A stretch of DNA of 32,701 bases from Acidimicrobiaceae bacterium (GCA_025463965.1 JAODBN010000104.1:1-32701); one strand, 5' to 3'. Shown: positions 1,618 through 22,452, numbered from the stretch's first letter. A program made the numbers and translations. Notes: generated from the sequence alone by a model not told the origin.

Positions 1618-1645
1618 AAGCCTCAGTGTTCGCCATGGAGACATA

Positions 1646-3343: not shown

Positions 3344-3411
3344 GACCCGGGCTCCGCAGGAGCCGCCGTGCGGCGACAATCGGTGGTGAGACTTAGCTCC
3401 GCCGAAACTTC

Positions 3412-4227: not shown

Positions 4228-4267
4228 GGAACTGGTGCTTCCTTCCGTTATCTCGTGTCCGCTGCGA

Positions 4268-5350
4268 TCAGCGGGCAGCCGCGCCGAGGTCTGCCAGCGC
4301 CTTCTTGCCGTAGCTGAGGTCAGACCATCCGGCTACTGCGGGCTGGGCCGTCAATGCGCCGACCTTGTTGTAGTAGATCTCCTGCAGCTTCAGCGGTGAG
4401 GCCGAGAGGATGCTTCCGTCCGGGTAAGCGCCGATGCTGCGCAGCTGATTGAAGAGTGACGCCGTCTGGGACGTGTTGATGCCGCTGTCGTAACTCGCGG
4501 TCTCCTTGACCAATCCAGCGTTGTTCGCCTTGTTGTTGAAGTACACGAACGAGAGCAGATCTGCCTCGTTCAGGGCGACCGCAGCCGTCTGGTGACTCTT
4601 CGCCCAAGTCGAGCGGGCAAACCACAGACCGTCGTAGAGGTCCTTGTTTTGCGTCATGTAGTCGTAGAGCACGTGGAAGCCCTGACCGGCAAGCGCGAAT
4701 TCCGATGCGTGGCTGAGCATCGTGGCATCGATCCGACCTGCCACCAGCGCGGCGAGGCGAGTCGACTGTCCACCGACGTTGAGGATGTTCACCTGGCTCT
4801 GCTTGAGGCCTGCCGCCTTCAAGGCGATCAATGCATCGACACCATTCTCGCCGACCATGTCCAAGATGCCGAGCGTCTTGCCCTTGAGGTCTGCAAGGGA
4901 CGAGATGTTCGGCCGGCCGAGGAGCACGTAGTCTTGGCGGGGCTCGGGAAGGGCGATCGCCTCGACAGGAATGCCGGAGTTGTAAGCGGCGAGGCCCACC
5001 GACAGGCCACCTTCCATGATGGTGCCACCGTGCAACATGTCGGCGTACTCAATGCTGGTGGAGGGTGCCCAGTGGATGGAGACCTTCGCTCCCCACTTGG
5101 CAAGCAGGTTGATCGCGTGAATCTCGATCTCGTTGCTCGTGGTAGCTGTGCCATCCATGATGAAGCTCATGTCGGTGCCCTTGAGCTTCGGGGGCACGAA
5201 GGAGGCAGTCCGCGGTGACTTCACGGAATGCACCGCGTGGCTCTTCGAGGCGAAGGCGTTCGTCATTCCAACCGAGCTGAGCAAGAGGCCCGCTCCGACG
5301 AGCGCAGCAGCCTTGGTTCCCAGTCCTTTTCTGCTCAACGATCCAACCAT
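4268..5350 (-). CDS. ABC substrate-binding protein, SsuA/THI5(NMT1)-like
   Basis: ATG 5350 with AGGGAGG RBS; signal peptide ending AFA; ISSLADLKGKTLGI and RLAALVAGRIDAT motifs; lies between permease and ATPase. Confidence 0.85.
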   Translation of the reverse strand: MVGSLSRKGLGTKAAALVGAGLLLSSVGMTNAFASKSHAVHSVKSPRTASFVPPKLKGTDMSFIMDGTATTSNEIEIHAINLLAKWGAKVSIHWAPSTSIEYADMLHGGTIMEGGLSVGLAAYNSGIPVEAIALPEPRQDYVLLGRPNISSLADLKGKTLGILDMVGENGVDALIALKAAGLKQSQVNILNVGGQSTRLAALVAGRIDATMLSHASEFALAGQGFHVLYDYMTQNKDLYDGLWFARSTWAKSHQTAAVALNEADLLSFVYFNNKANNAGLVKETASYDSGINTSQTASLFNQLRSIGAYPDGSILSASPLKLQEIYYNKVGALTAQPAVAGWSDLSYGKKALADLGAAAR

Positions 5351-5496
5351 TCTGATGACCCTCCCTAGTCGCATATGTGTGTAACAACAGCAGCCGTGGT
5401 GCATGTGGAACTTCGACGTTTCGCCATCGCCGCTCGAGTGCGCGGAGTCTCTTCAGCAAGCGCCGAGCGTGGCGCCGCAGCGCCGGGGGCTACGCC

Positions 5497-6369
5497 TTAA
5501 AAGCGGACCTGCTGCTCTGACGTGGTCGCGCCGACCCAAGGAAAGAAGCGGCGCTTTACCAGGTTGAGGAGAATGACGCCGATGACGCCCACCACCGATG
5601 CGGTAAAGACGCCCGCCAATAGGTACGCGGTCTGGAACGAGTTCCCGTAGTTGGTGACCAGGCCACCGAGGCCAGTCACGCTGACCTCCATCTCCGCGAT
5701 GAGCATTCCGATGAGCGCTTTTCCTAGAGCAATCCGCAGTCCGGCGAAGATGTAAGGGACCGCGTTAGGAAGCGTGATCTTGGAAACGACCTCCCAGCGA
5801 CTGAGCTTGTAGATGCTGGCCACGTCGATCAGCGCGGACGGGGTGCTCCGCACGCCGACGAAGGTGTTGATGATGACCGACCAGACGGCCAGAACGAACG
5901 TGACCGCGACTCGAGCTTCGAATCCGACTCCGAACCAGATGACCACGAGTGGTACGAGCGCAATCAGCGGCGTCGCCTGGAAGAAGTTGATGTAGGGGTC
6001 GAGGATCTTCTCGGCCACCTCGCTGCGCCCCATGAGAACGCCCGTGGCGATGCCCACCACGATCGCGAGGCCGAAGCCCACCCAGAGGTCTTCCATCGCA
6101 GTGAAGAAGGCTGGTATCAGCTGGCCGCGGCTGATCATGTGGCCGAAGGCGCTGATGGTCGAGGTCGGAGTGGAAAGCAGAATCGGGTTGATGCGGCTGC
6201 CGATCAGCTGCCATAGACCGAGGACAACGAGCACTGACACAACCGGCAAGATCCGCTTCAAGTTGCGAGAGGGACGATCGCTTCGGGCTTTGGGTTCGCC
6301 CAAATCGTCGCTCACTTCGTCAGCAACACCGAACGACGTAACGGACATGCTGGCGACCCGATCTGCCAT
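5497..6369 (-). CDS. ABC transporter permease, NitT/TauT (SsuC/TauC-like)
   Basis: Multiple TM helices; EAA-loop region LIDVASIYKLSRWEVVSKITLPNAVPYIFAGLR; AAGGAG RBS. Confidence 0.93.
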   Translation of the reverse strand: MADRVASMSVTSFGVADEVSDDLGEPKARSDRPSRNLKRILPVVSVLVVLGLWQLIGSRINPILLSTPTSTISAFGHMISRGQLIPAFFTAMEDLWVGFGLAIVVGIATGVLMGRSEVAEKILDPYINFFQATPLIALVPLVVIWFGVGFEARVAVTFVLAVWSVIINTFVGVRSTPSALIDVASIYKLSRWEVVSKITLPNAVPYIFAGLRIALGKALIGMLIAEMEVSVTGLGGLVTNYGNSFQTAYLLAGVFTASVVGVIGVILLNLVKRRFFPWVGATTSEQQVRF

Positions 6370-6473
6370 CTCGCTAGCTCCTTAGTCGGTCGGCCCAAGC
6401 CCTGGCTTGGTGCGCCGGATCAGGTTCGGACGTGAGCTAGCTCAGCCGCCCTTTCCCCCTACTCAGTGGCGTC

Positions 6474-6502
6474 ACCGTACCGATGTATACCGTGTATGTC
6501 AA
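6474..6502 (-). promoter_or_regulatory. Sigma70-type promoter TTGACA-17-TACGGT with GTATACA box in the spacer
   Basis: Minus strand reads TTGACA tacacgGTATACAtcgg TACGGT, about 105 nt upstream of the permease start. Confidence 0.75.
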
Positions 6503-6830
6503 GCAATATCAGGCATCGGAAGCCGACTCGCAGCCCCCTTTCATAGTGCCGAAACACAGGCGGGAGAGGTCGCCCTTTCAGTAATGAATGTCCAGGTCAG
6601 AGCGATGCGAATGCTTTCCGAGCAGGCCGAGCTGGCGCCGGCAATCGGCTGAGGCGTCGGGTTCATTCGGAGCGTGCTTCACCTCGCGTTGGAGAAACCG
6701 AACGCTGATAGCGGGAAGAAAATGACCGACAGACCGACAAGCCACCTATTACTTCCTCCCAGCGAGGGAGAGAAGGTGGCTGAGGAGACCGGCGCTCGTC
6801 TCGCGCTCACACTGCCGCCGAGGCGAGCTA

Positions 6831-6846
6831 GGAGGCAACCGCCTCC
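6831..6846 (-). terminator. GC hairpin just downstream of the gntR stop
   Basis: GGAGGC-aacc-GCCTCC, 15 nt after the stop. No clear U-tract. Confidence 0.35.
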
Positions 6847-6861
6847 CACAACGTCAGCGCG

Positions 6862-7581
6862 CTACAACTCAGACTTTTGCTGCATGTCCCGCACGACGAC
6901 CTGCAACTGCTCACTGACCTTCGCGAGGTGCTTTCGCAGCCACGAGCGCGCCCCTTCGACGTCGCCCTTTTCGAGACAGTCCAGGAGCCCGCTGTGGGAG
7001 CTAAAGGGCTCCTCGACCACGCTTTGGAGCACCAGGTATCCGCCCACTTCGGAGTGGAGACGAGAGACCAGCCTCAACGCGCGGTTCTGATTTGCGAGTG
7101 AGTACAAGTGCTCGTAAAACGGGATGCGTTGCATGATGGCGCCGCTGCTTGGCGGCGACTCGTCCAGCTCGGCTGCGAGCTTCCGGAGCTCCGCGAGGCG
7201 TTCGGGCGTGATGTGCGGCATCACCTTTTCGATCAAGTCGCACTCGACCAAGGTCCGCAAATCGTAGATCTCTTTGATGTCCTCGGGCCGTAATACCCTA
7301 ACGGTCGCTCCCCGATGGGGATGGATCGTCAGCAGACCCTCGGCCTGAAGCTGGCGCATCCCCGCACGAACGGGGATCCTGCTTATGCCGAGGATGTTCG
7401 CAATGCTGTCTTGAGGGAGCCGGTCGCCTGGCCGAAAGACGCCGCGATTGATCGCCTCGCGGACAAAGGCCTCGGCGAGATCTTCAGCGGTCCTCAGTGT
7501 CGGCTGAAATAGATCTGCCATTGATCGCAGCTCTTCGATGCCTTCCGGCATCTCGGGTCCACGCTCAACGTCTGCCCCCAC
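6862..7581 (-). CDS. GntR-family transcriptional regulator (FCD domain)
   Basis: wHTH FRPGDRLPQDSIANILGISRIPVRAGMRQLQAEGLL, HRGATV, EIYDLRTLVE, C-terminal H...GDVEGARSWLRKHL. Start could also be 7551. Confidence 0.93.
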   Translation of the reverse strand: MGADVERGPEMPEGIEELRSMADLFQPTLRTAEDLAEAFVREAINRGVFRPGDRLPQDSIANILGISRIPVRAGMRQLQAEGLLTIHPHRGATVRVLRPEDIKEIYDLRTLVECDLIEKVMPHITPERLAELRKLAAELDESPPSSGAIMQRIPFYEHLYSLANQNRALRLVSRLHSEVGGYLVLQSVVEEPFSSHSGLLDCLEKGDVEGARSWLRKHLAKVSEQLQVVVRDMQQKSEL

Positions 7582-7841
7582 CTCACCGGTCCTTTGTCAA
7601 AAGCAGGCACATCATCCGGACCGCTCGTGAGTTCTGAGCGTCCGGCATCATTGACCCTGACATTAGCGGGTGGTGCCTCGCCAGACGTCGTTCCTGTGAG
7701 GCAGCTGTCCGAGGTCCGCGACCCGAAGCGGAGTCCGAGTCTGCTCGGCAGCGAGCGCACCACCGTTGGCCAGAGGCTGTCCGGCTCGGGAGGTGCTCAG
7801 GAGCGAGAGTGTAGGTTGGGCATGCGTGGGGCGGCATTGAG

Positions 7842-9038
7842 ATGCATTCGGTGATCGACACCGTGGCCGCATGGCGAGCCGGCGGACTTCGGGTCGCCTG
7901 GGCCCGCGTCGTGGACACCGAAGGACCGAGCCCTCGCGCGGCGGGCGCCACGATGGCCGTGTCAGAAGACGGCAGGGTCGCCGGTTCTATCTCGGGCGGG
8001 TGCATCGACAGTACCGTCGTCGAGCGAGCGCAGGAACTTCTCGTAGCGGGCGGTTGCCAGCTAATCCGGTTCGGCTACTCGGACGACGAGGCCTTCTCGG
8101 TGGGCCAGACCTGTGGCGGAGTGGTGACGATCTTCATCTCGGGGACGCTGCCCGATGCCTACGACTCGTTTGAGGCGGCGTTCCGGCGATCCACATCGGC
8201 GGTGCTCGTGACGATCATCGACGGTGGTGATGGTCCCGTCTCTCAGGGCGCCTCGATGCTCGTGCACGGGGACGGTCGCTCGGAGGGCACCTTTGGCGAC
8301 GAGTGCCTCGATCGTGCTGTCATCAGTGAGGCGCTGGCAGTGCTCCCGACCTCACGTTCGTCGACTCGTGCCGTCAACTCCAAGATCGACGGACACTCTG
8401 CGGCGCCGGATGCTTTCTTTCACGCTCTCACCGTTCCCCCAAAGATGATCGTCATCGGGGCGGTGGACTTCGCTCTGGCACTCGCCAACCAGGCTCAGCT
8501 TCTCGGCTATGCCGTCACGATCTGCGATCCGAGGGCCACCTTCGCCACCCGGGAACGGTTCCCGACGGCCGGTGATGTCGTCGTTGACTGGCCGGACCGC
8601 TATCTGGCCTCGATCGGGACGACGCTCGGCCAACGCGATGCCGTCTGTGTCCTTTCGCATGAAGCACGCTTCGATGTCCCGGCGATCATGGCGGCGTTGA
8701 GCACAGAAGTGGGCTATGTCGGCGCTCTCGGCTCGAGGCGCACCACCGCAGATCGGCGCTCGCGTCTGCTCGACGCTGGCGCCGAACCGGCTGCCCTTGA
8801 CCGGCTGAACGCCCCGATCGGTCTCAACCTTGGCGCCCGGACGCCGGAGGAGACCGCGCTTTCGATATGCGCCGAGATCGTCGCCCTGCAGAATCGCCGC
8901 ATGGCCCTCCCGCTGCGCGAAGTAGACGGGCCGATTCAGGGAAGTCCTACGCCGTCGGGGACCAGCCCGGGTCGGCTCCGTGCCGACGTCGCCCAGCCGA
9001 CAACCGAGTGCTCTGTTTTCATGCCCTCGCGAACATGA
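7842..9038 (+). CDS. xdhC: XdhC/CoxF-family molybdenum cofactor insertion chaperone
   Basis: GPSPRAAGA, GSISGGCID, TCGG, GYVGALGSRR and APIGLNLGARTPEETALSI motifs. Confidence 0.92.
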   Translation: MHSVIDTVAAWRAGGLRVAWARVVDTEGPSPRAAGATMAVSEDGRVAGSISGGCIDSTVVERAQELLVAGGCQLIRFGYSDDEAFSVGQTCGGVVTIFISGTLPDAYDSFEAAFRRSTSAVLVTIIDGGDGPVSQGASMLVHGDGRSEGTFGDECLDRAVISEALAVLPTSRSSTRAVNSKIDGHSAAPDAFFHALTVPPKMIVIGAVDFALALANQAQLLGYAVTICDPRATFATRERFPTAGDVVVDWPDRYLASIGTTLGQRDAVCVLSHEARFDVPAIMAALSTEVGYVGALGSRRTTADRRSRLLDAGAEPAALDRLNAPIGLNLGARTPEETALSICAEIVALQNRRMALPLREVDGPIQGSPTPSGTSPGRLRADVAQPTTECSVFMPSRT

Positions 9039-9601
9039 CGCCTGCGGCCATTCTCCTCGCCGCGGGCTCCGGAAGCCGGTACGCGGGTCCAAGCCACAAG
9101 CTGCTTGCGCCCATAGGAGGCCGGCCCGTCGTGGTCGCAGCGCTCCATGCCGTCCTGGCGGCAGGGTTCGACGAGGTGATCGTGGTGACCGGCGCGGCGG
9201 ACCTCAGCGCGGTCCTTCCTGACGCCGTCACGGTACTGGTGAACCCTCGGTGGCACCTCGGCCTCGCCAGCTCACTTTCTTTGGGCCTCGGGCACTGCCG
9301 CCGACGCGGGCACCGGGCCGCGGTGATCGGGCTCGGCGACATGCCATCGGTGGGGACAGCGGCTTGGAAAGCGGTGGCTGCATCGGAGGCTCCGATCGCC
9401 GTCGCCAGCTTCGCAGGACAGCGCCGCCCGCCCGTCCGCCTCGCCGAGGAGCAATGGAAGCTTCTGCCCCTGGAAGGTGACGTCGGCGCCCGCTCGCTCT
9501 GGTCGCAACCCGAAGCGGTCGAGATCCCGTGCGAGGGCGACCCCTGGGACGTCGACACGATCGCAGATCTCGCTCGTCTGCGCGCCGGGGCGGCGAGCTA
9601 G
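9035..9601 (+). CDS. mocA: Molybdenum cofactor cytidylyltransferase (MocA-like nucleotidyltransferase)
   Basis: ATGA overlap with the xdhC stop; ILLAAGSGSRY, KLLA, NPRWHLGLASSL, LGDMP, GDVGAR, DVDT motifs. Confidence 0.88.
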   Translation: MTPAAILLAAGSGSRYAGPSHKLLAPIGGRPVVVAALHAVLAAGFDEVIVVTGAADLSAVLPDAVTVLVNPRWHLGLASSLSLGLGHCRRRGHRAAVIGLGDMPSVGTAAWKAVAASEAPIAVASFAGQRRPPVRLAEEQWKLLPLEGDVGARSLWSQPEAVEIPCEGDPWDVDTIADLARLRAGAAS

Positions 9602-9694: not shown

Positions 9695-10978
9695 TCAGGG
9701 CGAGAGCTCGACCTCAGGAGCATCCGTCGTCCGGCGGGCGAGGATCGCGCCGATCCCTGCGGCGGCAAAACAGGCCGCCGCCCCGACCATCAGCGCGACA
9801 CGAGCACTCGCCGCCGCGACGACCCACCCGATCACCGGCCCTCCGATCGGCGTCGTTCCCTGGAACGCCATCGACCACAGCGACATCGCCCGCCCGCGCA
9901 TGGAGAGCTCGGACCCCAGCTGCACCGTCGAGTTGCTGACCGTGATGAACGAGATGCTGAAGACTCCGACCGCTATCAGAGCGACGTACTCGACAGCTAC
10001 CACCGGGGCGACGGCGGCTGCCACGTTCGCGGAACCGAATCCCACTGCGGCGACGAGAAGCGCCCGGGCTCCGACGCGCTTCTTCCCCGCTGTGAGAACG
10101 CCGCCGGCAACTGCACCGAGGCCCATCGTCGCGTACATGAACCCGAAGGTCCGAGAACCGCTGTGGAACGTCTGGGTCGCGACGAGCGGCAACGACACGG
10201 GGTACTCGTAAGTGAACGTACCGATGATGACCATCATCAGGATCGCCATCGAGAGCTCCCTGCTCTTCTTGGCGTAGCGGATGCCAGCACGAAGCTGGCC
10301 CGAACTTCTGGCCAGAAAGGGAACCTTGTTGAGGGTGGCCTTGTCCATGGTCTTGAGTGCCAAGATCACCGCCAAAAAGGTGGCGGCATTGACCACGAAG
10401 CAGATTGCGACGCCAGCTACCGCTATCACGACCCCCGCGATCGCGGGCCCGATGGCCCGCGCCGCATTGATCATGATCGCGGTGAGGCTGACGGCATTCG
10501 GGACATCGTCTGGGCCGACCAGTTCATAGAGGATCGCCTGGCGGGACGGGAGGTCGAACGCCGTGGTGAAGCCGAGCACCGACGCGAGCACGCAGATCTC
10601 CCAATAGCGGGTGACGTGACTGAGCGTGAGGACCGCGAGCACGACTGCCTGGAAGGCCATGATTGCCTGCAGCAAAATCTGCAGGCGCCGACGGTCGACT
10701 CGATCGATGATGACGCCGGCGTAGGCACCGAGGAGAAGCAGTGGCAGCGTCTGGAGCGCAATGACGATTCCGAGCCTCGAGCTCGAGTGCGTCAGGCTTA
10801 GGACTAGCCACGACTGTGCCGCCGCCTGCATCCAGGTTCCCACCAGGGACGTCGACTGCCCGAAGAAGTACCTCCGGAAATTCGGCAGGCGAAGAGAGGA
10901 GAACCTCCCCCGCTCGGCCGGACCAAGGGTGCTCGCAGTGGTGCGGTCGCCCGACTCGATCATCGAGGCGGAGTCCAC
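9695..10978 (-). CDS. MFS transporter (MFS_3 / H+ antiporter-like)
   Basis: About 12 TM; NFRRYFFGQSTSLVGTWMQ, GVIIDRVDRRR, AFDLPSRQA, MRGRAMS motifs. Confidence 0.9.
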   Translation of the reverse strand: MDSASMIESGDRTTASTLGPAERGRFSSLRLPNFRRYFFGQSTSLVGTWMQAAAQSWLVLSLTHSSSRLGIVIALQTLPLLLLGAYAGVIIDRVDRRRLQILLQAIMAFQAVVLAVLTLSHVTRYWEICVLASVLGFTTAFDLPSRQAILYELVGPDDVPNAVSLTAIMINAARAIGPAIAGVVIAVAGVAICFVVNAATFLAVILALKTMDKATLNKVPFLARSSGQLRAGIRYAKKSRELSMAILMMVIIGTFTYEYPVSLPLVATQTFHSGSRTFGFMYATMGLGAVAGGVLTAGKKRVGARALLVAAVGFGSANVAAAVAPVVAVEYVALIAVGVFSISFITVSNSTVQLGSELSMRGRAMSLWSMAFQGTTPIGGPVIGWVVAAASARVALMVGAAACFAAAGIGAILARRTTDAPEVELSP

Positions 10979-11168: not shown

Positions 11169-12071
11169 CTACGAAGCGCTGATGGCGCGCTCGAGATCGT
11201 CCATGTTCAGCGCCCTGCTTCCCAGCGCAAGATCCGTACCACCGCTGACCATCGCCCGGAACACGAGCTTGCGCACTTGGCGCGCGTCAATCGAACGCTC
11301 CGCCAAGCGATCGGCCAGTGATTGCAGCCGGTCTCCTGCCAGGTCCATCGTGGTGTTGGGCAGTTCGCTGAGGCTGTCGCGCAGGATCTCGACGATCGCG
11401 TCGGCCGAAGGGGGGCCCAAGACCTCGAGGATGTCCACTCGGGACAAGACTGCCTCGTCGACAGCCTCGGGGAAGTTCGTCGTGGCGACGAACACCACGT
11501 TCGGGTGAGCACGTGCCACGTGGTCCAGCCCCGTCAGCACTGCTTCGGTCGAGCGATGGACATCCGCCGGGTTGGTGTCGGTCGACGTCCATCGTCTACT
11601 TACTGCAAGCCCCTCGACCTCGTCGATGAGCACCACGACCGGCGCGCCGTCGTGCGCGACGTCGGGGATCGCCCGTTCGAACAGTCGAGCGATTCCCCGC
11701 TGGGACTGGCCCAACAGCTCGCTCGGCAGCGCGTGTGGGTCGATGAGAACGAACCGCACGCCTGAGGCGATACCACGTTGGCGCAGCTCCCTCGCCGCGC
11801 GGTCGGCGAGCCCATGCGCCAACGTGGTCTTGCCGGTTCCGGGCGGCCCACTCAGAAGGATCAGGCCGTGAACCGGGAGTCCAACATCCGACATCTTCCT
11901 GCCAGGACCGAGGCAGAACAGCATCGCATTCAGGAGACGCTCCTTCACCCCGGGCGGGGTGATGATCCGGTCCCATCGTTCGGTCCACTGGTCAGCTGGC
12001 AGATCGACGAGGGCGGAGATGCCCGCCTGACGGTTGGCAGGAGAGAGCTCGAATGCGGACTCGTTGCTCAC
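11169..12071 (-). CDS. Pch2/TRIP13-type AAA+ ATPase (CBASS Cap6-like), 300 aa
   Basis: GTG 12071 overlaps the cupin TGA (GTGA). Motifs: LPVHGLILLSGPPGTGKTTLA, IDPHALPSELLGQSQR, VLIDEVEGLAVSR, NPADVHRSTEAVLTGLD, ATTNFPEAVDEAVLSRVD. These match the Pch2/TRIP13 clade pattern. Confidence 0.85.
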   Translation of the reverse strand: MSNESAFELSPANRQAGISALVDLPADQWTERWDRIITPPGVKERLLNAMLFCLGPGRKMSDVGLPVHGLILLSGPPGTGKTTLAHGLADRAARELRQRGIASGVRFVLIDPHALPSELLGQSQRGIARLFERAIPDVAHDGAPVVVLIDEVEGLAVSRRWTSTDTNPADVHRSTEAVLTGLDHVARAHPNVVFVATTNFPEAVDEAVLSRVDILEVLGPPSADAIVEILRDSLSELPNTTMDLAGDRLQSLADRLAERSIDARQVRKLVFRAMVSGGTDLALGSRALNMDDLERAISAS

Positions 12072-13105
12072 TCGGGACGCCCGGCATCCTTGTCCGGCCA
12101 CTGGATGCCGGACAGATCGGGGGCATCCAGCTTGGGCAGCTCGGACCACAGGTCCATCGGGTCGAGCAGGACGCGCATTAGATCGTAGAGGGCGTCGAAG
12201 TTGTGCACCCGGATCAAGCGAGCGGTGTTGTTCTTGTCGTCGTTGAAGTGTTGGTGCCATGCCCAGTGGTCGACGACCACGAGGTCACCAGGCCCCCACT
12301 CGTAGGACACGTCATCGATGTCGCTGTGGCCATGGCCGCTCACCACGTGGAGCCATGCTTCGCCACCGTGGCGGTGCCGTGATTGCCAGAGTCCGGGGGC
12401 AAGCTCGTGCATGACCGCGGTCAGGCCGGAAGTGCGGAACCCGATCGACTGGTCAACGAGAAATGCGCTTCTCGCCCCCCGCTTGGTGACGCGAGGCGTG
12501 ACCTCGTCCCAGCGCGTGATCAAGCGCCGGTCTTCGGTTGACTGGGTCTCCGCGAGCCGCTCGGACCGGCGGGCATAGCCGTCGGAGCCGGGCACCTTGA
12601 CGGTGCGAGGCGCCAGCGGGAGGTCCTTCACCGGCGTGTCCCCGCCGTCTTCGAGCATCGCCATGCCGAGGGCCTCGTGCATGGGCTGCACGCTCCAGGT
12701 CACAAAGCGGGCGTCGGTGGCCCCTTCGTTGCCATGTCGGTGCCAGGCCCATGCGGGCAGGTGGACGGTGTCCCAGGGACGCCACTGGATGCGAACGCCG
12801 TCGATCTCGGTCCAACCCGATCCTGACGTCACGAACATCATGGCGTCCCACGAGTGCCGGTGAATCGTCGAGGTGTTGCCTGCCGGGATCTCGTGCAAGG
12901 TCGCGTCGAGCACCTTGGTCGGGCTCTCCCCGTCAGCGCCCATGTAGACGCCCCGCCGCATCCGGCGGGCGGGCGAGTCCTCGAGCTTCACGTCGGCTTC
13001 TCGGATGATCGTCCGGCGATACTTCCGCCAGTCCTCGACCACCTGGGCACGTCGCTGCTTCTGCACCTCGTAATGCGTCACCGTCTGCGTCACGGTTTTA
13101 GCCAA
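12068..13105 (-). CDS. Bicupin metalloenzyme (gentisate 1,2-dioxygenase-like fold), 345 aa
   Basis: TTG start at 13105 with GGAGGGG RBS. Two cupin motifs: HRHSWDA...HLPAWAWHRHGN and HRHGGEA...DHWAWHQHFN. Confidence 0.85.
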   Translation of the reverse strand: MAKTVTQTVTHYEVQKQRRAQVVEDWRKYRRTIIREADVKLEDSPARRMRRGVYMGADGESPTKVLDATLHEIPAGNTSTIHRHSWDAMMFVTSGSGWTEIDGVRIQWRPWDTVHLPAWAWHRHGNEGATDARFVTWSVQPMHEALGMAMLEDGGDTPVKDLPLAPRTVKVPGSDGYARRSERLAETQSTEDRRLITRWDEVTPRVTKRGARSAFLVDQSIGFRTSGLTAVMHELAPGLWQSRHRHGGEAWLHVVSGHGHSDIDDVSYEWGPGDLVVVDHWAWHQHFNDDKNNTARLIRVHNFDALYDLMRVLLDPMDLWSELPKLDAPDLSGIQWPDKDAGRPE

Positions 13106-13133
13106 AGCAACCCCTCCAGGCTCGGATCGCCGA

Positions 13134-13364: not shown

Positions 13365-15728
13365 TCACTCGTCGTCTGTCCGATCCGAGATCAACCGCCA
13401 GACACGCTCAGGCGTAAGCGGAATGCGATCGGGCCACCGGCCGATCGCCCGAGCCACCGCCGTGACGACGGCCGCTGCGATCGGATTCAAAGACCCTTCC
13501 CCCGAGCCCTTGGCACCGTACGGACCGACTCCGTCACGCCGCTCTGCCAGCATCAAGTCGATCCGCGACGGCAGGTCTCGCATGCGTGGAATCCGGTAGT
13601 CGACCAGGTTGGGGTTGACCACCTGGGGTCCGTCGTAGATGAGCTCTTCGAACAGCGAGAGACCGAGGCCCTGGGTAGCCGCGCCGAGATCCTGCGCTTC
13701 TACAGCCTGAGGATTGATGGCGAAACCTACATCCCCGACCGTCGCCAACTGCTCGACGGTGACGGCGCCGGTCTCGGGATCGATCCTGCAGCCGACACCG
13801 ACCATCCCGATCTCCCAGAACGGTGGCATCTGCTTGGTCACACCGGAGCGCCGCACCGTGCCCACTCCGGTCACCTCACCGGCCGAGGCCCCGAACCACT
13901 TCTTGACGATCTCGCCGTAGCGAAGGATCCTGTTGTCTTCGAGGGAGAAGCCACCGGGGCACTGGGTGATCGTGTCGATGTCGACGTTCTCCACTTCCGC
14001 CGCCATCGCCCGCATCTTGGAGAGCGCGTCGGCACAAGCCCTCTGGAGAGCAAGGCCGGCGAGGGTGGTCGTACGACTTGCTCCCGTGGTGCGCTCGTAG
14101 GCGGTCGAACCGGTGTCGGACTGGCGCACCGCGACCTGTCGCAGCTCGATGCCGAACTCCTCAGCAGCGATCTGTCCGAGCAATGAGCGGCTTCCCTGGC
14201 CCATCTCGGTCGATCCGCTGAGGACGATCACCGAGCCGTCCGTCTCTACTCGCACGGCTGCGGTCGACACGGGAAAGGCGCCGGCGTCGGAGGCAGAGCA
14301 AGCGAACCCCACCCCGTACCACTTCGTATTCGACGGCTCACCCATCTTCAAGGCCGAGAGGAGCATCTCGAGATCGGCGGGAAGATCCGCGTCGATCCCC
14401 CGCTTGCCTTGCAGGATCTCCTCGCCGGGCTGCACCAGATTCCGGCGGCGGATCTCTGCGGAGTCGATGCCGAGCTCCTCGGCGGCACGCTCGAGGTTGG
14501 TCTCGCCAGCAAGCACACCCTGAGGGGCACCGAAGCCCCGGTAGGACGACGCCGGAGACGTGTTGGTGTAGATCGAGCGGCCACGGACGCGCAGGTTGGG
14601 GACACGGTACGGGCCGAAGCAGCGATTGACCGACTTCGCGATCACGAGCGGGCTGTTGTCCGCATATGCGCCGGAGTCCATGACGATGTCGAACTCGCGA
14701 GCAATGAACCGGCCGTCGGCATCGAGGGCGCTACGTACCTTGACCACCGCGGAGTCGACACGCGTCGTGTAGATGGACTCTTCGACGTCCAAGACGAGCT
14801 TCACCGGCCTGCCGACGTGCCACGAGGCGACCGCAGCGAGCGGCTCGACCTTCGTGTACGACTTCGACCCGTAGCCGCCACCAAGGTACGGTGCGCGGAC
14901 CGTGACCGCCGAAAGCGGGAGGCCGAACACCCTCGCGAGGTCGTCACGGACCATGAACGGGTGCTGTGCGGTGCTGTCGACCTCCAGCCGACCGTTGGCG
15001 TAGGACGCGATCGCGTTGTAGGGCTCCATGGCGTACGCGTACAGCATGGGAAAGTGCATCGAGCTCTCGACGACGACCGCGGCCGACTCCCATGCAGCGT
15101 CGACGTCGCCCCACTCGAGCGTCACCTCGTGCGCGACGTTGTCGACCCGGGGCCCACCCTCTGGCGAGCCCGCGCCCTCGCCCGGGCTGAGGTTGTCCAC
15201 GTCCAGAAGCGGCAGGTCTACTTCGTGGACCAGCACCGCCCCAGCGGCGAGGGCGTCCTCCGCCGTGATCACCGCGGGCAGGTCCTCGTACTCGACCTGA
15301 ACGAGCTCGAGCGCGTCAGCTGCAGCCGCCTCGGTTTCTGCGACGACGAGTGCGACTGGCTCGCCGTAGTAGCGGACCTTGCCGTTCGCGAGGATCTCGT
15401 GATCGGCAACGATGTGCCCGAATCGCGAGCAGAGCCCCGTGAGGGTGTCGCAAGTCAGCACGGCGACGACTCCCGGCGCCGAGCGAGCGGCATCAGTGTC
15501 GATGGCGAGGATTCGGGCGTGTGCCCTGGTCGATCGGACGATCTTCGCGGAGGCCGATCCGCTGCGCCGCAGGTCTACGCAGTAGACCGCCGCGCCGGTC
15601 ACCTTCTCGAGGAGGTCGGGCCGGAGCACCGAGTGTCCGACATACGCGTGGCCGGACTCTTGGCGAGCCCCCTGGCCGTGCTCGCCCGAGCCGTCGAGGC
15701 TCGAGGAAATCTGGCCCACGTCAGCCAT
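13365..15728 (-). CDS. Xanthine dehydrogenase-family molybdopterin-binding (large) subunit
   Basis: ATG 15728 overlaps the small-subunit stop. KVTGAAVY, GGGYGSK, SYRGFGAPQ, EMGQG, GASRTT, GAKGSGEG (catalytic Glu). Confidence 0.93.
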   Translation of the reverse strand: MADVGQISSSLDGSGEHGQGARQESGHAYVGHSVLRPDLLEKVTGAAVYCVDLRRSGSASAKIVRSTRAHARILAIDTDAARSAPGVVAVLTCDTLTGLCSRFGHIVADHEILANGKVRYYGEPVALVVAETEAAAADALELVQVEYEDLPAVITAEDALAAGAVLVHEVDLPLLDVDNLSPGEGAGSPEGGPRVDNVAHEVTLEWGDVDAAWESAAVVVESSMHFPMLYAYAMEPYNAIASYANGRLEVDSTAQHPFMVRDDLARVFGLPLSAVTVRAPYLGGGYGSKSYTKVEPLAAVASWHVGRPVKLVLDVEESIYTTRVDSAVVKVRSALDADGRFIAREFDIVMDSGAYADNSPLVIAKSVNRCFGPYRVPNLRVRGRSIYTNTSPASSYRGFGAPQGVLAGETNLERAAEELGIDSAEIRRRNLVQPGEEILQGKRGIDADLPADLEMLLSALKMGEPSNTKWYGVGFACSASDAGAFPVSTAAVRVETDGSVIVLSGSTEMGQGSRSLLGQIAAEEFGIELRQVAVRQSDTGSTAYERTTGASRTTTLAGLALQRACADALSKMRAMAAEVENVDIDTITQCPGGFSLEDNRILRYGEIVKKWFGASAGEVTGVGTVRRSGVTKQMPPFWEIGMVGVGCRIDPETGAVTVEQLATVGDVGFAINPQAVEAQDLGAATQGLGLSLFEELIYDGPQVVNPNLVDYRIPRMRDLPSRIDLMLAERRDGVGPYGAKGSGEGSLNPIAAAVVTAVARAIGRWPDRIPLTPERVWRLISDRTDDE

Positions 15729-16221
15729 TCTCGCCTGCCTTGATCCCCTGGAGCACCCGCGCCGCCTGCTCGACCGCGGCAACGATCGGCGCGTAGCCGG
15801 TGCATCGACACAGATTGCCGTCCAGGTGCTCCAGGATCTCCTCCCGACTCGGCTGAGGAGTGCTGTCGAGGAGCGCCTTGGCCATCATGATGAAGCCGGG
15901 CGTGCAAAAGCCACACTGGAGAGCCATCTTTTCGACGAACGCGCGCTGCAGGGGATGGAGCTCGCCGTCGCGGGCCAGCCCCTCGATCGTGGTTACCGCC
16001 TTCCCGTCCACGTCCACCGCTAGGTACGTGCACGCGCTGACGGGCTCACCGGCGACGAGCACCGTGCAGGCGCCACAGATCTGCACGTCACAGCTCACCT
16101 TCGTGCCGGTCAGTGCGAGGTCCTCACGCAGCCAGTGCGCCAGGGTCGTCCGGACGTCGATCGCCTGGGTGATCGAGTTGCCGTTGACCGTGCAAGCGAT
16201 CTCCAAAGAGGTGACGCTCAC
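15721..16221 (-). CDS. [2Fe-2S] small subunit (CoxS/XdhA-like)
   Basis: GTG 16221 overlaps the upstream TGA. GTKVSCDVQICGACTV, QCGFCTPG, NLCRCTGY. Confidence 0.95.
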   Translation of the reverse strand: MSVTSLEIACTVNGNSITQAIDVRTTLAHWLREDLALTGTKVSCDVQICGACTVLVAGEPVSACTYLAVDVDGKAVTTIEGLARDGELHPLQRAFVEKMALQCGFCTPGFIMMAKALLDSTPQPSREEILEHLDGNLCRCTGYAPIVAAVEQAARVLQGIKAGENG

Positions 16222-17021
16222 AGCGAGTCCCCTTGAATGGCGAGCTGCATGGCTCGCCGCACGTACACCTCGACGATGTGTCGCTTGTACTCCACCGAGC
16301 CGCTCAGATCCTCGACGAGGTCGATGCTCTCCGCGACGGCATGCGGGTCGAAGCCTGACGGCGAGTCTGCCTCGAGCACCAATGGGATCTCGCCCACCGC
16401 GCCGACGGCGAGACGCCATGGGCCTTCCGCTTCGTCGTGAACGAGCGCCACACCGACGGTCGGCCTCTCGGAGTACTGGTACTTGAGGTAGACGCCGCGA
16501 TAGCGGCGCACCTTCGGGATCAGCACGTTCACCAACAACTCCCCCGGTTCACGAACAGTCTCGTACGCGCCGATGAGGAAATCTCGCATCGCCACTTCAC
16601 GGCTGTCCGTCTGCGACTGAAGGGTCACGGACGCCTCCATCGCGCACAGAAGCGTCGCGATGTCAGAGCGCGGTTCTGCAAAGCACAGGTTGCCGCCGAT
16701 CGAACCTTGCGAACGAACTCGGGCGTTGCCGACCCGACGCTCAACCGAGGCAAGGAGCGCCGAGCCACTGAGCACGTCGTCGTCCGTTGCGAGCCTTGCA
16801 TGGGTCACCGCGCCGCCAACGAGGACGTCATCGCCGTCCCAGTCGAGGCGGCCCAGCTCCGCAATGCCCTTCAGGTCCACCAAGCACCGTGGCCGGAGAA
16901 CGTTCATCTTCATCGCCATCAGCAGCTCGGTCCCGCCGCAATAGGGAACGGAGACATCATCGAGCAATCCAAGGGCCTCGTCGAGGCGGTCGGGGCGCTC
17001 GAGCGCGAAGGGCGGGAGCAT
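16218..17021 (-). CDS. FAD-binding medium subunit (CoxM-like)
   Basis: GGTELL, VRSQGSIGGNLCFAEPRSD, GSVEYKRH motifs; TGATG overlap with coxG. Confidence 0.93.
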   Translation of the reverse strand: MLPPFALERPDRLDEALGLLDDVSVPYCGGTELLMAMKMNVLRPRCLVDLKGIAELGRLDWDGDDVLVGGAVTHARLATDDDVLSGSALLASVERRVGNARVRSQGSIGGNLCFAEPRSDIATLLCAMEASVTLQSQTDSREVAMRDFLIGAYETVREPGELLVNVLIPKVRRYRGVYLKYQYSERPTVGVALVHDEAEGPWRLAVGAVGEIPLVLEADSPSGFDPHAVAESIDLVEDLSGSVEYKRHIVEVYVRRAMQLAIQGDSL

Positions 17022-17479
17022 CAGCCCGACGCGAGTGCCTTCTCGGCGCTTCCGAAGAACTGCTCGAGGATCTTGTCCGCCTTGCGGCGGATAGTCCCCG
17101 CGCCGAGCGTCGCGATGCGCCCCGTGACTTCGTAGGTGCCGACGACATTGATGGAGCTGCCCCCATCGGGCGCAGCCTCCAGCTGCAGTGCCGCGTCCAC
17201 CGAGATCCTGGAGCCGACCTGGCGATCTTCACCGGAGGCAGCGATCCGCACGAGCTCGAGCGGGCGCAGCTCGGTCACCCGGATATCGAGGTCGGCTCGC
17301 AGCCGAAAGGGTCCCACCTGGTCCTTGAGGACGGCGATGTACTGCTCGAGGAACGTCTTTTCTTGTACGTCCTCGACGATCGGCACCCAACTCGCGACCG
17401 TGCTCACGTCGAGGAGCACCTTCCAGGCCGCCTCCGGCGCTGCCGCGACAGCGATCGATCGATCGAACGAGGTGGCCAT
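17021..17479 (-). CDS. SRPBCC / CoxG-family protein
   Basis: 152 aa SRPBCC pattern (AWKVLLDVSTVASWVP...VTGRIATLGAGTIRRKADKILEQFF) directly upstream of the M/S/L subunits. Confidence 0.85.
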   Translation of the reverse strand: MATSFDRSIAVAAAPEAAWKVLLDVSTVASWVPIVEDVQEKTFLEQYIAVLKDQVGPFRLRADLDIRVTELRPLELVRIAASGEDRQVGSRISVDAALQLEAAPDGGSSINVVGTYEVTGRIATLGAGTIRRKADKILEQFFGSAEKALASG

Positions 17480-17491
17480 GGCGTACCGGCC

Positions 17492-18487
17492 CTACGCCCG
17501 GGCGCCCTGGGCGCGCAGCTTCGGCAGCACCTCGTTGCCGAGCAGCTCGATCTGGTCGAACCAGCGCTCGAACTTGAACCGGAAGTCGAACACGAGGTGG
17601 TCGACGCCAGCCTCTTCAAACTTCTTGCACTCAGCGACAGCATCGTCCGGCGAGCCGACGATGAGCTGTCCCTCGAGGTCCTCCACCGTCTCGAACGTTC
17701 CGGAAGGCGGCTTCACGCTGAACTTGGCCTTGTTCGCCCAGGCGAGCAGCCCAGGAACGTTGACGTCCTCCAGGGCCTTCTCTCGCGTCTCCTCGATGGA
17801 GGTGGGAGGAATGACACCGATAGTCGGAAGCTTGCTTCCCTTTGCGTCGGAGAGCTCGGCCATCGTGGCGATGCGCTGCTTGAGCGTCTCGAGGGCGATA
17901 CGACCAGGCATCCAGCCGTCACAGAATTCGACCGCCAGGCGCGCCGAGCGCGGCGTCGCTCCGCAGTACCAGAACGGCACCGGACCACCCACCGGCTTCG
18001 GCTCGATCGTCACGTCGGTGAATGAGAAGTTGGCGTCCTTGTAGGAGACCTCATTCTCGGTCGCGACCTTGCGAAGGATCTCCGCGTTGGACCGTACGAG
18101 CTCCACGCGGTCCCGATCGCCCCACTCGATGGCCTCGAATTCGTGGTCGAACGTGCCGGCACCAAAGCCGAGGATCAGGCGCGGTCCGACGAGCTGGGTA
18201 ATCGTTCCCGCCATGAGCGCCGTGACGAGCGGGTGCCGGAAGGGGATCAACGAGCCGGTGCCGAGCTCGAGACGCTCGGTCACCGCGCCGATGGCCGTGA
18301 GCGTGGTCAGGGCGTCGTAGAAGGTGCGGTTGGGCTTTTCCATCTCGCCGTGCGGCTCGAAGACGAGGTGGTCCCGCACCCACACCGAGTCGAAGCCGAG
18401 CGCCTCGGCGCGGCGCGCCCCCTCCAGCAGGTTTTCCTTGGACGCGTGCTCACCGAAGTGCGGGAGCAGCAAACCGTATTTCGTCAT
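17492..18487 (-). CDS. LLM-class (luciferase-like) flavin- or F420-dependent oxidoreductase
   Basis: AEALGFDSVWVRDH, LTAIGAVTERLELGT, RLILGFGAG, PKP, DGWMP, IVGSPD motifs. Confidence 0.88.
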   Translation of the reverse strand: MTKYGLLLPHFGEHASKENLLEGARRAEALGFDSVWVRDHLVFEPHGEMEKPNRTFYDALTTLTAIGAVTERLELGTGSLIPFRHPLVTALMAGTITQLVGPRLILGFGAGTFDHEFEAIEWGDRDRVELVRSNAEILRKVATENEVSYKDANFSFTDVTIEPKPVGGPVPFWYCGATPRSARLAVEFCDGWMPGRIALETLKQRIATMAELSDAKGSKLPTIGVIPPTSIEETREKALEDVNVPGLLAWANKAKFSVKPPSGTFETVEDLEGQLIVGSPDDAVAECKKFEEAGVDHLVFDFRFKFERWFDQIELLGNEVLPKLRAQGARA

Positions 18488-18530
18488 CTGGACCTCCGAT
18501 AGAAGATGTTCCCGGTCGCCATGAGGTGAC

Positions 18531-19910
18531 CTAGCGAGGGGTAGCCATCAAGGCTTGGCCGGTCTTGCCGACGACTTCCCCGTCACGGAAGATGAACTCT
18601 CCCCGCAACATGGTGGAGTCGATGCGAACACTCGAGGTGCGGCCGTTGTAGGGAGTCCATCCGCACCGGGAGAGGACCTGGTCGTCGGTGATCACCCAGG
18701 GATCGTCGAAGGCGGCAAGCACCAGGTCCGCGTCACAACCCGGCTCGATCGCGCCCTTGACCCCGCCGAGGCCGAACTTCTGGGCCGGTCGGTATGCGGC
18801 GGCGTCCACGGCTCGATCGAGCGGGATCCGACCCGCAGCGACCGCGTCGAGCAGGAGCGGGTACAGGAATTGGATGCCGGGTGTTCCGGTGTGGGCGGAC
18901 CACATCTGGGTCCAGCCGATTTCCTTTTCTTCCCGGGTGTGGGGAGCGTGGTCCGATGAGTAGACGTCGATCGTGCCGTCGAGCAGCCCCTCCCACACCG
19001 CAGCGCGGTGATCGTCGGGCACCCAGTACGAGAGGGCATAGGGGCCGAGCTTCTCTACGTCGTCCCACGTCGACAGGAAAAGTGCCCAGTGGTTGACCTC
19101 GCAGGTCACGTCGACCCCGCGTGCCTTGGCCCTGCGAACGGCGTCAATGGAGCGCCTCGTCTGCATGTGCGCGATGTGAATCGGACAGTTCGAGGCCTCT
19201 GCGAGGCGCAGGATGACGTCGATTGCCGTGTCCCAGATCACACCGTCACGGGCGGCGTATGCCTGCGCGTACCCCTGTGGCGTGTTCTCGCCCCGCGCCA
19301 GGAACTTGCCCTCGATGTAGTCCATGAGGCTCTGGTCGTGCGGGTGGATGATGAAGCGCTTCCCGGTGGGTGCGATGAGATCCATCATCTCGAGCAGGTG
19401 ACCGTGGTCGTGCATCCCCGTCCCTGCGGGATGCGGGTAGGTCCTGCCCGTATCGACGACCATGTAGATCTTGAACGCACGAATGCCGGCGTCCGACATG
19501 GCTTGGATGTCGCCGAGCTGGGTGGGAGCCGGATTGTGGTTGTAGTCCACGATCGACTTCTCGCGGTAGAGGTCGAGGACCTCGGTCAAGGTCTCGAGGT
19601 TGGTGGTCGGAGGCTCCAGGTTCGGCATCCCGAAGATCGTCGTGACGCCACCCACGGCCGCTTGGATTCCGGTCGTGGTGATGTCCTCTTTGTGCGTGTA
19701 CCCGGGCTCACGCGTGTGAACGTGAACGTCCACCATGCCCGGCAGCACGGTGAGGCCCGACGCGTCGATCACCTCGGCATCGATGGAAGCTCCCGTCTCC
19801 GGCGTCACCAGGCCAGCGATGCGGCCGTCCGAGACGAGGACGTCCAGGTCGTGGACCCCGGTCGGGGTCACTACCCGTCCTCCGGTGATCCGCTTATCGA
19901 TAGCCATCAC
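18531..19910 (-). CDS. Cyclic amidohydrolase (dihydroorotase/allantoinase/hydantoinase family)
   Basis: PGMVDVHVHTREPG, GGVTT..MPN, FKIYM (Lys), HIAH, SSDHAPH, GCDADLV, WTPYNG. Start is GTG 19910 or ATG 19907. Confidence 0.9.
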   Translation of the reverse strand: MMAIDKRITGGRVVTPTGVHDLDVLVSDGRIAGLVTPETGASIDAEVIDASGLTVLPGMVDVHVHTREPGYTHKEDITTTGIQAAVGGVTTIFGMPNLEPPTTNLETLTEVLDLYREKSIVDYNHNPAPTQLGDIQAMSDAGIRAFKIYMVVDTGRTYPHPAGTGMHDHGHLLEMMDLIAPTGKRFIIHPHDQSLMDYIEGKFLARGENTPQGYAQAYAARDGVIWDTAIDVILRLAEASNCPIHIAHMQTRRSIDAVRRAKARGVDVTCEVNHWALFLSTWDDVEKLGPYALSYWVPDDHRAAVWEGLLDGTIDVYSSDHAPHTREEKEIGWTQMWSAHTGTPGIQFLYPLLLDAVAAGRIPLDRAVDAAAYRPAQKFGLGGVKGAIEPGCDADLVLAAFDDPWVITDDQVLSRCGWTPYNGRTSSVRIDSTMLRGEFIFRDGEVVGKTGQALMATPR

Positions 19911-20848: not shown

Positions 20849-20933
20849 CAGCGATCACTCCTCTCGGGTCAGCCATCCACCCGGCTTTCGGGGCGCCAAC
20901 GGCCGGCTGCCCTCGAACTCAAGACTGGGAGGC

Positions 20934-20962
20934 ATCATGTTGCCTGTATACGATCTTGTCAA
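20934..20962 (-). promoter_or_regulatory. Promoter TTGACA-17-CATGAT with GTATACA box, driving the 7-gene hydrolase-to-molybdoenzyme operon
   Basis: Minus strand reads TTGACA agatcGTATACAggcaa CATGAT. Confidence 0.72.
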
Positions 20963-21129
20963 GCTATCCCGTGCCCTGATCTGCTCTCGGCGACGACCAG
21001 CGCGCCAGGCGCGCGACGTTGATCGCCAAATTGGCGCGCCGCTTCAGCCAACGCCTCCCCGGTCGGGCGACAGCCCCTCCCCGAGGCTCCCGGTTTCCTG
21101 GGGCTTAGCGGGCGCGTTGGCGCAAAGGC

Positions 21130-22116: not shown

Positions 22117-22203
22117 GGCCGATCGCCCTTCTCTTTGCTCGTGGCGCGCGCCGCCCGTCCGGCGTGTGCCGGGAGCTGGCGGTTCCGCCAGTCTCGCCGC
22201 CGT

Positions 22204-22232
22204 ATCATGTATCCAATTGCCGGCTGGAGCAA
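22204..22232 (-). promoter_or_regulatory. Promoter TTGCTC-17-CATGAT overlapped by a TGGATACA box
   Basis: Minus strand reads TTGCTC cagccggcaattggata CATGAT. The 8-mer (TGTATCCA at + 22208-22215) is the same as in the cupin promoter. Confidence 0.5.
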
Positions 22233-22452
22233 CTGCTCCGGCCTCGTCCCGGGCAGGGCGTCGGCCTCCCCGAGAGACCACGGGGGTTCACCTCTTCGAC
22301 GCCACGAGCTCACAACCGCCTCGCCGCAGTCACTCGCCGGTCCGCCGCAATCGGGTGTCGGACCGAAGTGCGCCACGCGCCGCCCTTGTTGGAGCATTTC
22401 GACCACTGGGGTTACCGTAGCCAGTTCATTGCCCCGGGTGAACGGACGGTCG

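Follow-up and report, generated by a model that had tools for sequence, protein, structure and literature searches.

A threonine-ladder N-terminus on an ATPase-linked bacterial bicupin, and its possible role as an engagement tag for a TRIP13-type ATPase

The bicupin encoded in the stretch of DNA considered here (32,701 nucleotides from an Acidimicrobiaceae bacterium, called the window below and meant in its entirety) begins with a short alternating ladder of threonines, and it is probable, to judge from comparison with its relatives, that this tail is an engagement tag gripped by the TRIP13-type ATPase whose gene is coupled to that of the cupin. If the tail is such a tag one would expect it to be kept wherever cupin and ATPase genes are linked, as the first-pass annotation had supposed, and a Ser/Thr-rich tail was indeed found at all 92 of the genome loci and all 54 of the metagenome loci where a linked cupin could be read from its start. 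The companion expectation, that the tail should be commoner in linked than in unlinked cupins, was also borne out, the tail being absent in 3 of 8 unlinked cupins and in two lineages of Actinomycetes, and in no linked cupin.

TRIP13/Pch2 is regarded as a HORMA specialist, working in eukaryotic checkpoints and in bacterial CBASS immunity. A literature search, outside which subscription journals and supplementary files lay, turned up no publication in which a cupin is coupled with an ATPase of TRIP13 type.

The gene pair and its surroundings

The features of the locus are collected in Table 1. On the evidence of their GTGA overlap the cupin and ATPase genes are translationally coupled; the ATPase frame is open further upstream, to 12260 in the ORF list, but the extra stretch falls inside the cupin gene.

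Table 1 Features of the cupin-ATPase locus, in positions of the window (residue numbers are those of the protein concerned).
Feature	Position	Strand	Basis or remark
MFS transporter	9695..10978	-	directly 3' of the ATPase gene; Pfam MFS_3, E 2e-64
TRIP13/Cap6-type AAA+ ATPase, 300 aa	11169..12071	-	PADLOC TRIP13 model, PDB matches
Pore-loop-2 region of ATPase, including N167-P-A-D-V-H172-R173	11547..11585	-	alignment
Pore-loop-1 region of ATPase, PSELLGQSQR, residues 116-125	11697..11726	-	aligned with human TRIP13 pore-loop-1 (HMMER)
Walker A of ATPase, GPPGTGKT, residues 75-82	11826..11849	-	alignments
GTGA overlap	12068..12071	-	ATPase GTG start and cupin TGA stop, two bases in common; direct reading
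Bicupin CDS, 345 aa	12068..13105	-	distantly like gentisate/salicylate 1,2-dioxygenases
Bicupin codons 1-12, (M/L)AKTVTQTVTHY	13070..13105	-	translation
Shine-Dalgarno-like GGAGGGG	13111..13117	-	5 nt (TTGCT) ahead of TTG; direct reading
Molybdenum hydroxylase large, FeS and FAD subunits, CoxG, luciferase-like monooxygenase	13365..18487	-	Pfam; upstream of the cupin gene

The ATPase belongs to the bacterial TRIP13 family. It matches the PADLOC TRIP13 profile PDLC00915 with E 4.7e-81 and 270.5 bits over profile positions 7-289 of 302, the next-best family in that library reaching only 54.7 bits, and its PDB matches are headed by TRIP13/PCH2 (E 2.5e-30), the bacterial Trip13 chains not appearing among the PDB matches listed for it, for the L089 ATPase or for a profile; Pfam AAA also matches it (E 1e-21), and GPPGTGKT and DEVE (Walker A and Walker B) are both present in the alignment. 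Within the window's own genome, which is 77% complete, it scores 273.7 bits on the TRIP13 profile as against 62 bits for the next AAA+ protein, and this cupin-linked gene is the only one of TRIP13 type there.

The ATPase is 39-41% identical to the TRIP13 proteins of two type III CBASS operons, L089 from a Rhizobiales bacterium and L087 from an Acidimicrobiia MAG, both of which encode TRIP13, HORMA2 and a CD-NTase; HORMA2 was identified in L089 by profile scan (PF18173, E 2e-83), while the genes of L087 were named from ORF reading. In the trees, which were quick ones (IQ-TREE and FastTree) carrying SH-like supports only, cupin-linked and CBASS ATPases make up one group (SH-aLRT 100) that lacks internal resolution. 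Relatives of the ATPase were also sought directly in genome contigs: a single-sequence scan returned one locus, its patterns being too specific, and an alignment-based scan on the Walker A motif returned mostly generic Cdc48-like AAA+ proteins, among which only L088 and L089 were useful. One candidate relative, L090, was rejected, being a 775-residue Cdc48-like protein.

The bicupin is matched twice by Pfam Cupin_2 (E 7e-25), and its structural relatives include 3bu7, found both as a PDB match (E 4e-18) and as a fold match, and 4fag, found by Foldseek (E 1e-20, TM 0.58). With the gentisate and salicylate 1,2-dioxygenases it shares a two-barrel fold and His-rich metal motifs, an HRH...H motif being present in both barrels and invariant across 46 sequences. 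Unlike them, it is only about 19-20% identical to the group and lies below the equivalog cut-off, scoring 65 bits against the 442.1 bits demanded by the NCBIfam model for gentisate 1,2-dioxygenase (TIGR02272) and 75.9 bits against the 650 of the 5-aminosalicylate dioxygenase model; the solved enzymes also have an N-terminus about 70 residues longer than that of the window bicupin. We know of no ATPase partner described for any of these dioxygenases.

By their gene content, the surroundings of the pair in the window are catabolic. In addition to the genes given in Table 1 the window holds XdhC, MobA, a second luciferase-like monooxygenase, an alpha/beta hydrolase, an amidohydrolase and, controlled by a GntR regulator, an ABC importer. 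Parts of this arrangement recur elsewhere: an MFS gene lies 3' of the ATPase gene in most related operons too, a luciferase-like monooxygenase (LLM) stands immediately upstream of the cupin in most Chloroflexota loci, and the dominant operon order in Limnocylindria is LLM-cupin-ATPase-MFS-M20. There is no HORMA gene among the window neighbours of the ATPase, and the set that makes up a type III CBASS system (CD-NTase, HORMA, Trip13 and effector in one operon) is not seen, these neighbours being catabolic and transport genes. A search of the window's own genome (77% complete) with PF18173 (HORMA2) gave no match, but as control genomes were likewise without one the result does not establish absence from the genome as a whole.

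Start, conservation and loss of the N-terminal tail

The start of the bicupin had been placed at a TTG codon supported by a GGAGGGG ribosome-binding site, and this placing stands. Read on the minus strand, the TTG occupies 13105-13103 and is followed by GCT AAA ACC GTG ACG CAG ACG GTG ACG CAT TAC, the translation of which (Table 1) is exactly that required for the alternating T-V-T-Q-T-V-T-H head that had been described; the threonines of the ladder fall at alternate positions, T4, T6, T8 and T10, with H11 and Y12 coming next. Support for the TTG comes from the orthologues, in which a start-capable codon (ATG, GTG or TTG) is found equidistant from the invariant HY while the sequence upstream of it is unconserved, and also from gene predictions made independently for the 120 protein clusters nearest to the bicupin, in which HY is preceded by 10 residues in 82 clusters and by 11 in 30.

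Across the alignment of 46 sequences H11 and Y12 are invariant, and T6, T8 and T10 are each at least 90% conserved, although the exact columns shift with the placement of gaps. Genome scans in which each species was represented once yielded a non-redundant set of 109 cupin genes, 96 of which have the ATPase directly downstream; the N-terminus is readable in 92 of these 96, and in every one of the 92 the tail contains at least three Ser/Thr, an alternating ladder of at least three being present in 86 and the mean Ser/Thr fraction of the tail being 0.62. Among 80 metagenome loci (counted without de-duplication, so that any overlap with the genome loci is left in) the ATPase adjoins the cupin in 59 and 14 stop at a contig edge; all 54 linked cupins that could be read have at least three Ser/Thr in the nine residues before HY, and 52 have at least four. 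The 120 nearest protein clusters show much the same thing, with at least four Ser/Thr in the nine residues before HY in 111. Within the window's own class 7 of 391 high-quality genomes were cupin-positive, all seven with an adjoining ATPase and a tail, and a sample of 400 genomes of Actinomycetes (the class of locus L001) added five more with linked, tailed cupins.

The register of the tail varies by clade, but in every case the tail is rich in Thr and runs directly up to the invariant HY, as in K-T-T-T-S-T-Q-V-T from Chloroflexota, T-E-T-R-T-T-T-S and T-T-R-T-R-T-A-T-S from Acidimicrobiia, and S-R-T-T-T-K-V-T from mycobacteria.

N-terminal Thr ladders of such length are rare in the window's own genome. 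As a background, 5614 crude ORFs of at least 200 aa were taken from that genome and ladders sought in residues 2-13; an alternating ladder of Thr alone reaches at least three in 8 of the 5614 and at least four in none, the window cupin itself going uncounted in this set, where it is read from an upstream GTG. Among 331,310 internal 12-mers the corresponding figures are 0.19% for at least three and 0.03% for at least four.

In an AlphaFold2 model of the cupin monomer, calculated with the 46-sequence alignment (mean pLDDT 89.5, pTM 0.86), residues 1-10 are given as coil (mean pLDDT 62) and helix 1 spans residues 11-27. The tail is thus predicted to be unstructured, and it does not supply a strand to the modelled fold, in keeping with its original description as a segment lying ahead of the cupin fold.

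Some of the cupins that lack an adjacent ATPase serve as natural experiments on the tail. Its absence was found in three lineages, none with an adjacent ATPase. One is a subclade of Limnocylindria (L052, L068 and L079, with L241-243 from metagenomes) in which the operon runs LLM-cupin-MFS-M20, the ATPase gene having been cleanly deleted. The flanking genes here are 70-86% identical to those of linked operons and the cupin bodies about 80% identical to linked relatives, with all metal ligands kept, but the Thr ladder has given way to N-termini that are longer, charged and divergent from one another. The three genomes of this subclade (MAGs of unstated completeness) yielded no gene of TRIP13 type, the best score being 43 bits as against 274 in the window's genome. 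On the tree the subclade forms a single branch (SH-aLRT 99) within a larger, supported group that counts 68 rows in all, the remainder of which comprises 63 linked cupins and 2 at contig ends; all of those with a readable downstream flank are linked and tailed.

The other cases come from the Actinomycetes sample, where Jiangella-like cupins in two genomes (G474 and G494) are tail-less and without an adjacent ATPase, as is a tandem pair of cupin paralogues in G494. No TRIP13-type gene was detected in G474 at E 1e-25. The single such gene of G494 lies elsewhere, behind a bicupin split into two monocupin genes, one corresponding to the N-terminal and the other to the C-terminal half of the window protein, and the first of these monocupins has an S/T-rich N-terminus; in a further genome (G003) the ATPase gene lies behind a monocupin with only a weak tail. 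Taken together, the losses of the tail amount to two or three events, always without an adjacent ATPase, and none is seen among some 150 linked genes (which, as kin, are not independent of one another). Over the evolution represented by these comparisons, tail and adjacent ATPase go together.

The association is not perfect in the other direction, since there are unlinked cupins that nevertheless have a Thr-rich tail: L001 (two copies), L040, L059, L065/L066, L278, L282, L287 and L318. In the genomes of L059 and L065/L066 a TRIP13-type gene is present elsewhere, while none was found in those of L001 and L040, which are metagenome-assembled and of unstated completeness. Counting genome loci, the tail is missing from three of eight unlinked cupins.

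Comparison with Trip13 and its HORMA clients

The idea of a tail held in the pore derives from work on HORMA clients, and the first-pass annotation had taken it as established that TRIP13 grips their extended N-terminal tail in this way; this is stated in the preprint describing a structure of the E. coli CdnC:HORMA:Trip13 complex (Ye et al., bioRxiv 10.1101/694695). According to that source, the extended HORMA N-terminus lies in the pore of the hexamer with a two-residue periodicity, pore loop 1 touching one face of it while a ladder of pore-loop-2 His173 residues hydrogen-bonds every second Ser/Thr; alternating Ser/Thr residues are conserved in HORMA N-termini, and removal of HORMA residues 1-12 abolishes the action of Trip13.

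The window cupin fits this pattern of a client tail, having Thr at 4, 6, 8 and 10 in a coil that gives way to a helix from residue 11, and in bacterial HORMA proteins too, as they have been described, the ladder leads directly into a helix, as in the AlphaFold2 model of the cupin. A wider comparison was made with 53 HORMA2 proteins, being those kept (full length and aligned from their start) out of 150 representatives listed. An alternating Ser/Thr ladder of at least three in residues 2-16 is present in 30 of the 53, as against 275 of the 5614 background ORFs (4.9%), and one of at least four in 24 as against 63; the Ser/Thr fraction of the HORMA2 proteins is 0.40 in residues 2-16 but 0.15 in the rest of the protein. 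Of the resemblance originally proposed, between the cupin head and bacterial HORMA starts consisting of Ser/Thr-rich strands that lead to a TH, it is therefore the alternating ladder that survives, whereas the ending is far from general: [ST]H occurs near positions 6-16 in only 21 of the 53. It does occur as T10-H11, just as in the window cupin, in both the P. aeruginosa HORMA2 (PDB 6p8s) and the HORMA2 of L089.

On the side of the ATPase, pore-loop-1 residues S117, L120, G121, S123 and Q124 are invariant in 19 sequences. By its position H172, in pore-loop-2, is a candidate counterpart of the Ser/Thr-binding His173 of E. coli Trip13, its offset from the Walker A Lys being +87 (in the Chloroflexota form) as compared with +86 for His173 as published. 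The position it occupies, P-x-D-V-[x]-R, co-varies with the last residue of the tail before HY. Where it is His the tail ends ..T-H-Y (69 distinct pairs together with the L215 group); where it is Met, Ile, Leu, Val or Ala the ending is ..S-H-Y (20 distinct pairs); and where it is Ser, as in four distinct pairs from Ilumatobacteraceae, the ending is again ..T-H-Y. Both CBASS ATPases (L087 and L089) have His at this position and their HORMA2 proteins have T-H. Such co-variation fits a direct contact between tail and pore, but it is not proof of contact, and since the classes follow clades it reflects only a few events. It should also be borne in mind that Acidimicrobiia ATPases have Met, Ile, Leu, Val, Ala or Ser in place of the pore-loop-2 His while the cupins retain a Thr-rich tail, so that a ladder of His residues cannot be the whole of the recognition mechanism.

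Set beside the CBASS type III systems as a whole, then, the likeness lies in the motor and in the N-terminus of the client, which on both sides has Ser/Thr at alternating positions just before a helix: the window ATPase shares with Trip13 (Cap6) its ATPase family, a size of about 300 aa and the level of identity given above, and with the ATPases of L087 and L089 (which are of the 2-HORMA type) the pore-loop-2 motif NP-x-D-[VI]-H-R. The differences are that its client would be a bicupin metalloenzyme rather than a HORMA protein, that there is neither a CD-NTase adapter nor an effector, and that the cupin-ATPase operon is catabolic, in a family that occurs for the most part in Chloroflexota (Limnocylindria) and Actinomycetota. 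Eukaryotic TRIP13/PCH2, which acts with p31comet and MAD2, supplies the best solved-structure matches of the window ATPase, and the action proposed below, remodelling by partial unfolding from the N-terminus of the client, would be of the same kind. Here the differences are that the window ATPase lacks the N-terminal adapter-binding domain, having about 25 residues before the point at which it aligns with TRIP13 residue 128, that no adapter for it is evident, and that the fold of the client is another one.

A possible mechanism, and the alternatives

If the tail is indeed a tag, about ten residues at the head of the bicupin would form a flexible Ser/Thr ladder, which the pore loops of the TRIP13-type AAA+ hexamer would hold in much the way that Trip13 in CBASS holds a HORMA client by its N-terminus. 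By threading the tail the hexamer might then pull on helix 1 (residues 11-27) and so transiently loosen the N-terminal barrel or the oligomer. The purpose could be to reset or repair the enzyme, for instance by freeing it of an oxidised metal or of an inhibitor that had bound tightly, the ATPase thus having the role of an "activase", such as Rubisco activase has for Rubisco. Relatives with neither tail nor ATPase keep all of the metal-binding His residues and look catalytically intact, which favours reset or repair and suggests that the ATPase is an accessory not needed for catalysis itself. Rubisco activases, themselves AAA+ enzymes, release inhibitors from Rubisco by threading a tail at one of its termini, and the proposal resembles them in that a metabolic enzyme would have, encoded next to it, an AAA+ motor of its own that resets the active site by pulling on a terminal tail; they belong to a different AAA+ clade and act on a different client, so that any analogy with the window pair would be purely functional.

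On a different view, which seems to us unlikely, the tail serves the structure of the cupin itself, perhaps as a strand that one subunit of the oligomer swaps with another or as a cover for the active site, and the ATPase acts, on the cupin or on another target, without using it. Beta strands typically show such alternation of Thr and Val, the tail is retained by several unlinked cupins, and the AlphaFold2 model, being that of a monomer, is compatible with pairing of strands between subunits. Nonetheless the tail is a low-confidence coil in that model, relatives without it keep all of their metal ligands, its last residue co-varies with a residue in the pore loop of the ATPase, and it has been lost in no linked cupin, while in relatives about 80% identical an unrelated charged sequence has replaced it exactly where the ATPase gene was deleted. 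That loss of the tail tracks loss of the adjacent ATPase also argues against the Thr-rich head being unrelated to the ATPase and reflecting instead some effect of codons or mRNA as translation begins, recognition by a different protease or unfoldase, or sites of phosphorylation. It is common to find Lys, Thr and Ser immediately after bacterial start codons, but the Thr codons here are GC-rich (ACC and ACG), the pattern is maintained across phyla in differing registers, and few N-termini in the window's own genome show it; an origin of this sort is accordingly quite improbable. That a short, low-complexity stretch should resemble a HORMA tail merely by chance is scarcely credible, for although it comprises only about ten residues it is conserved in about 150 linked genes from several phyla, and background rates are low.

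It might also be asked whether the pair descends from CBASS and works as a module of defence or signalling, in which the cupin would be a HORMA-like sensor that the ATPase resets, with no metabolic repair involved. The ATPase does score as TRIP13 in a library of defence systems, and it is about 40% identical to genuine CBASS TRIP13 proteins. We nevertheless think this very unlikely, given that the operon contains no CD-NTase, HORMA or effector, that the neighbours kept from operon to operon encode a luciferase-like monooxygenase, an MFS transporter and an M20 hydrolase, with a molybdenum hydroxylase, an amidohydrolase and a GntR-regulated ABC importer nearby in the window, and that the metal-binding His residues are kept in both cupin barrels.

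Should the tail prove to be an engagement tag, a broader proposition would come into view, namely that these cupins of soil Chloroflexota and Actinomycetota are a second, non-HORMA class of TRIP13 client, in which a portable pull tag and a dedicated hexamer serve as a metabolic activase or repair motor. This larger claim is put forward tentatively, as a possibility about which some doubt is in order. If it were true, a metabolic bicupin would be the first class of TRIP13 client outside the HORMA proteins, in a pairing that is conserved and widespread, and would add another enzyme to those having an AAA+ activase of their own; the Ser/Thr ladder would have been shown to be a portable recognition tag, and tag and pore-loop code together would constitute a general, transferable recognition system. 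The metabolic pair could in that case be the evolutionary source of the TRIP13-HORMA machinery of CBASS and of eukaryotes, or else an offshoot of it. On a practical level, any software for finding defence systems that relies on the TRIP13 profile will pick up these metabolic ATPases too. One carrier of the gene pair, Mycolicibacterium wolinskyi ATCC 700010 (L088), is in culture, and a simple, testable system is thereby available.

Gene neighbourhoods and origin of the locus

The cupin–ATPase pair of the window is set in a large catabolic island whose gene content (see the table) suggests the breakdown of an N-heterocycle. In Limnocylindria a five-gene operon is kept across L004, L022, L029, L056, L169 and many other loci, its order being luciferase-like monooxygenase, bicupin, TRIP13-type ATPase, MFS transporter and M20 hydrolase. 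At the Mycolicibacterium wolinskyi locus (L088) the second bicupin is unrelated to the first and lacks a Thr-rich head. The upstream flank carries NMT1/THI5-like and ABC solute-binding genes.

The window cupin (genome G000) is closest to Actinomycetes-type proteins (L001, L002 and L285), with which it is 73-77% identical, whereas its identity to cupins in high-quality genomes of its own class is only 57-62%; this difference may reflect horizontal transfer of the locus or a mis-binned contig.

Coordinates and content of the features discussed
Feature	Locus	Position (strand)	Content
Catabolic island, large	window	3412-9601 and 13365-22281	GntR regulator; ABC importer with NMT1/THI5-like binding protein; three-subunit molybdenum hydroxylase with CoxG; XdhC; MobA; two luciferase-like monooxygenases; amidohydrolase; alpha/beta hydrolase
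ATPase open frame	window	11169-12260 (-)	
ATPase, 300-aa form	window	11169-12071 (-)	
Monocupin pair with ATPase	L342 (G494)	1486-3520 (-)	two monocupin genes, then TRIP13-type ATPase
Monocupin with ATPase	L345 (G003)	1498-3182 (-)	single monocupin preceding ATPase
Mycolicibacterium wolinskyi locus	L088	4430-6160	cupin-ATPase pair, then isochorismatase-family hydrolase and second bicupin
CBASS type III operon, complete-looking	L089	3444-6287	TRIP13, HORMA1-like gene, HORMA2, CD-NTase
CBASS type III operon, complete-looking	L087	1409-5425	TRIP13, HORMA1-like gene, HORMA2, CD-NTase, possible effector

ATPases beside monocupins

The monocupin pair of L342 is a split form of the window bicupin, its two genes corresponding to the N-terminal and the C-terminal half of that protein; a solute-binding protein gene lies downstream. 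The head of the single monocupin in L345 has only weak Ser/Thr character, and the tailed bicupin of the same genome is found on a separate contig (L059) from this ATPase.

Annotation of the ATPase and its CBASS relatives

The open frame of the window ATPase takes in a further 63 upstream codons from within the cupin gene, and automatic annotation could predict a 363-aa protein overlapping the cupin. Both the GTGA junction and the orthologues speak for the 300-aa form. PDLC00915, a defence-system TRIP13 profile, gives cupin-linked metabolic ATPases, including that of the window, about 270-330 bits, so defence finders are likely to flag such ATPases as CBASS parts. The nearest non-cupin relatives of the window ATPase are those of the L089 and L087 CBASS operons.
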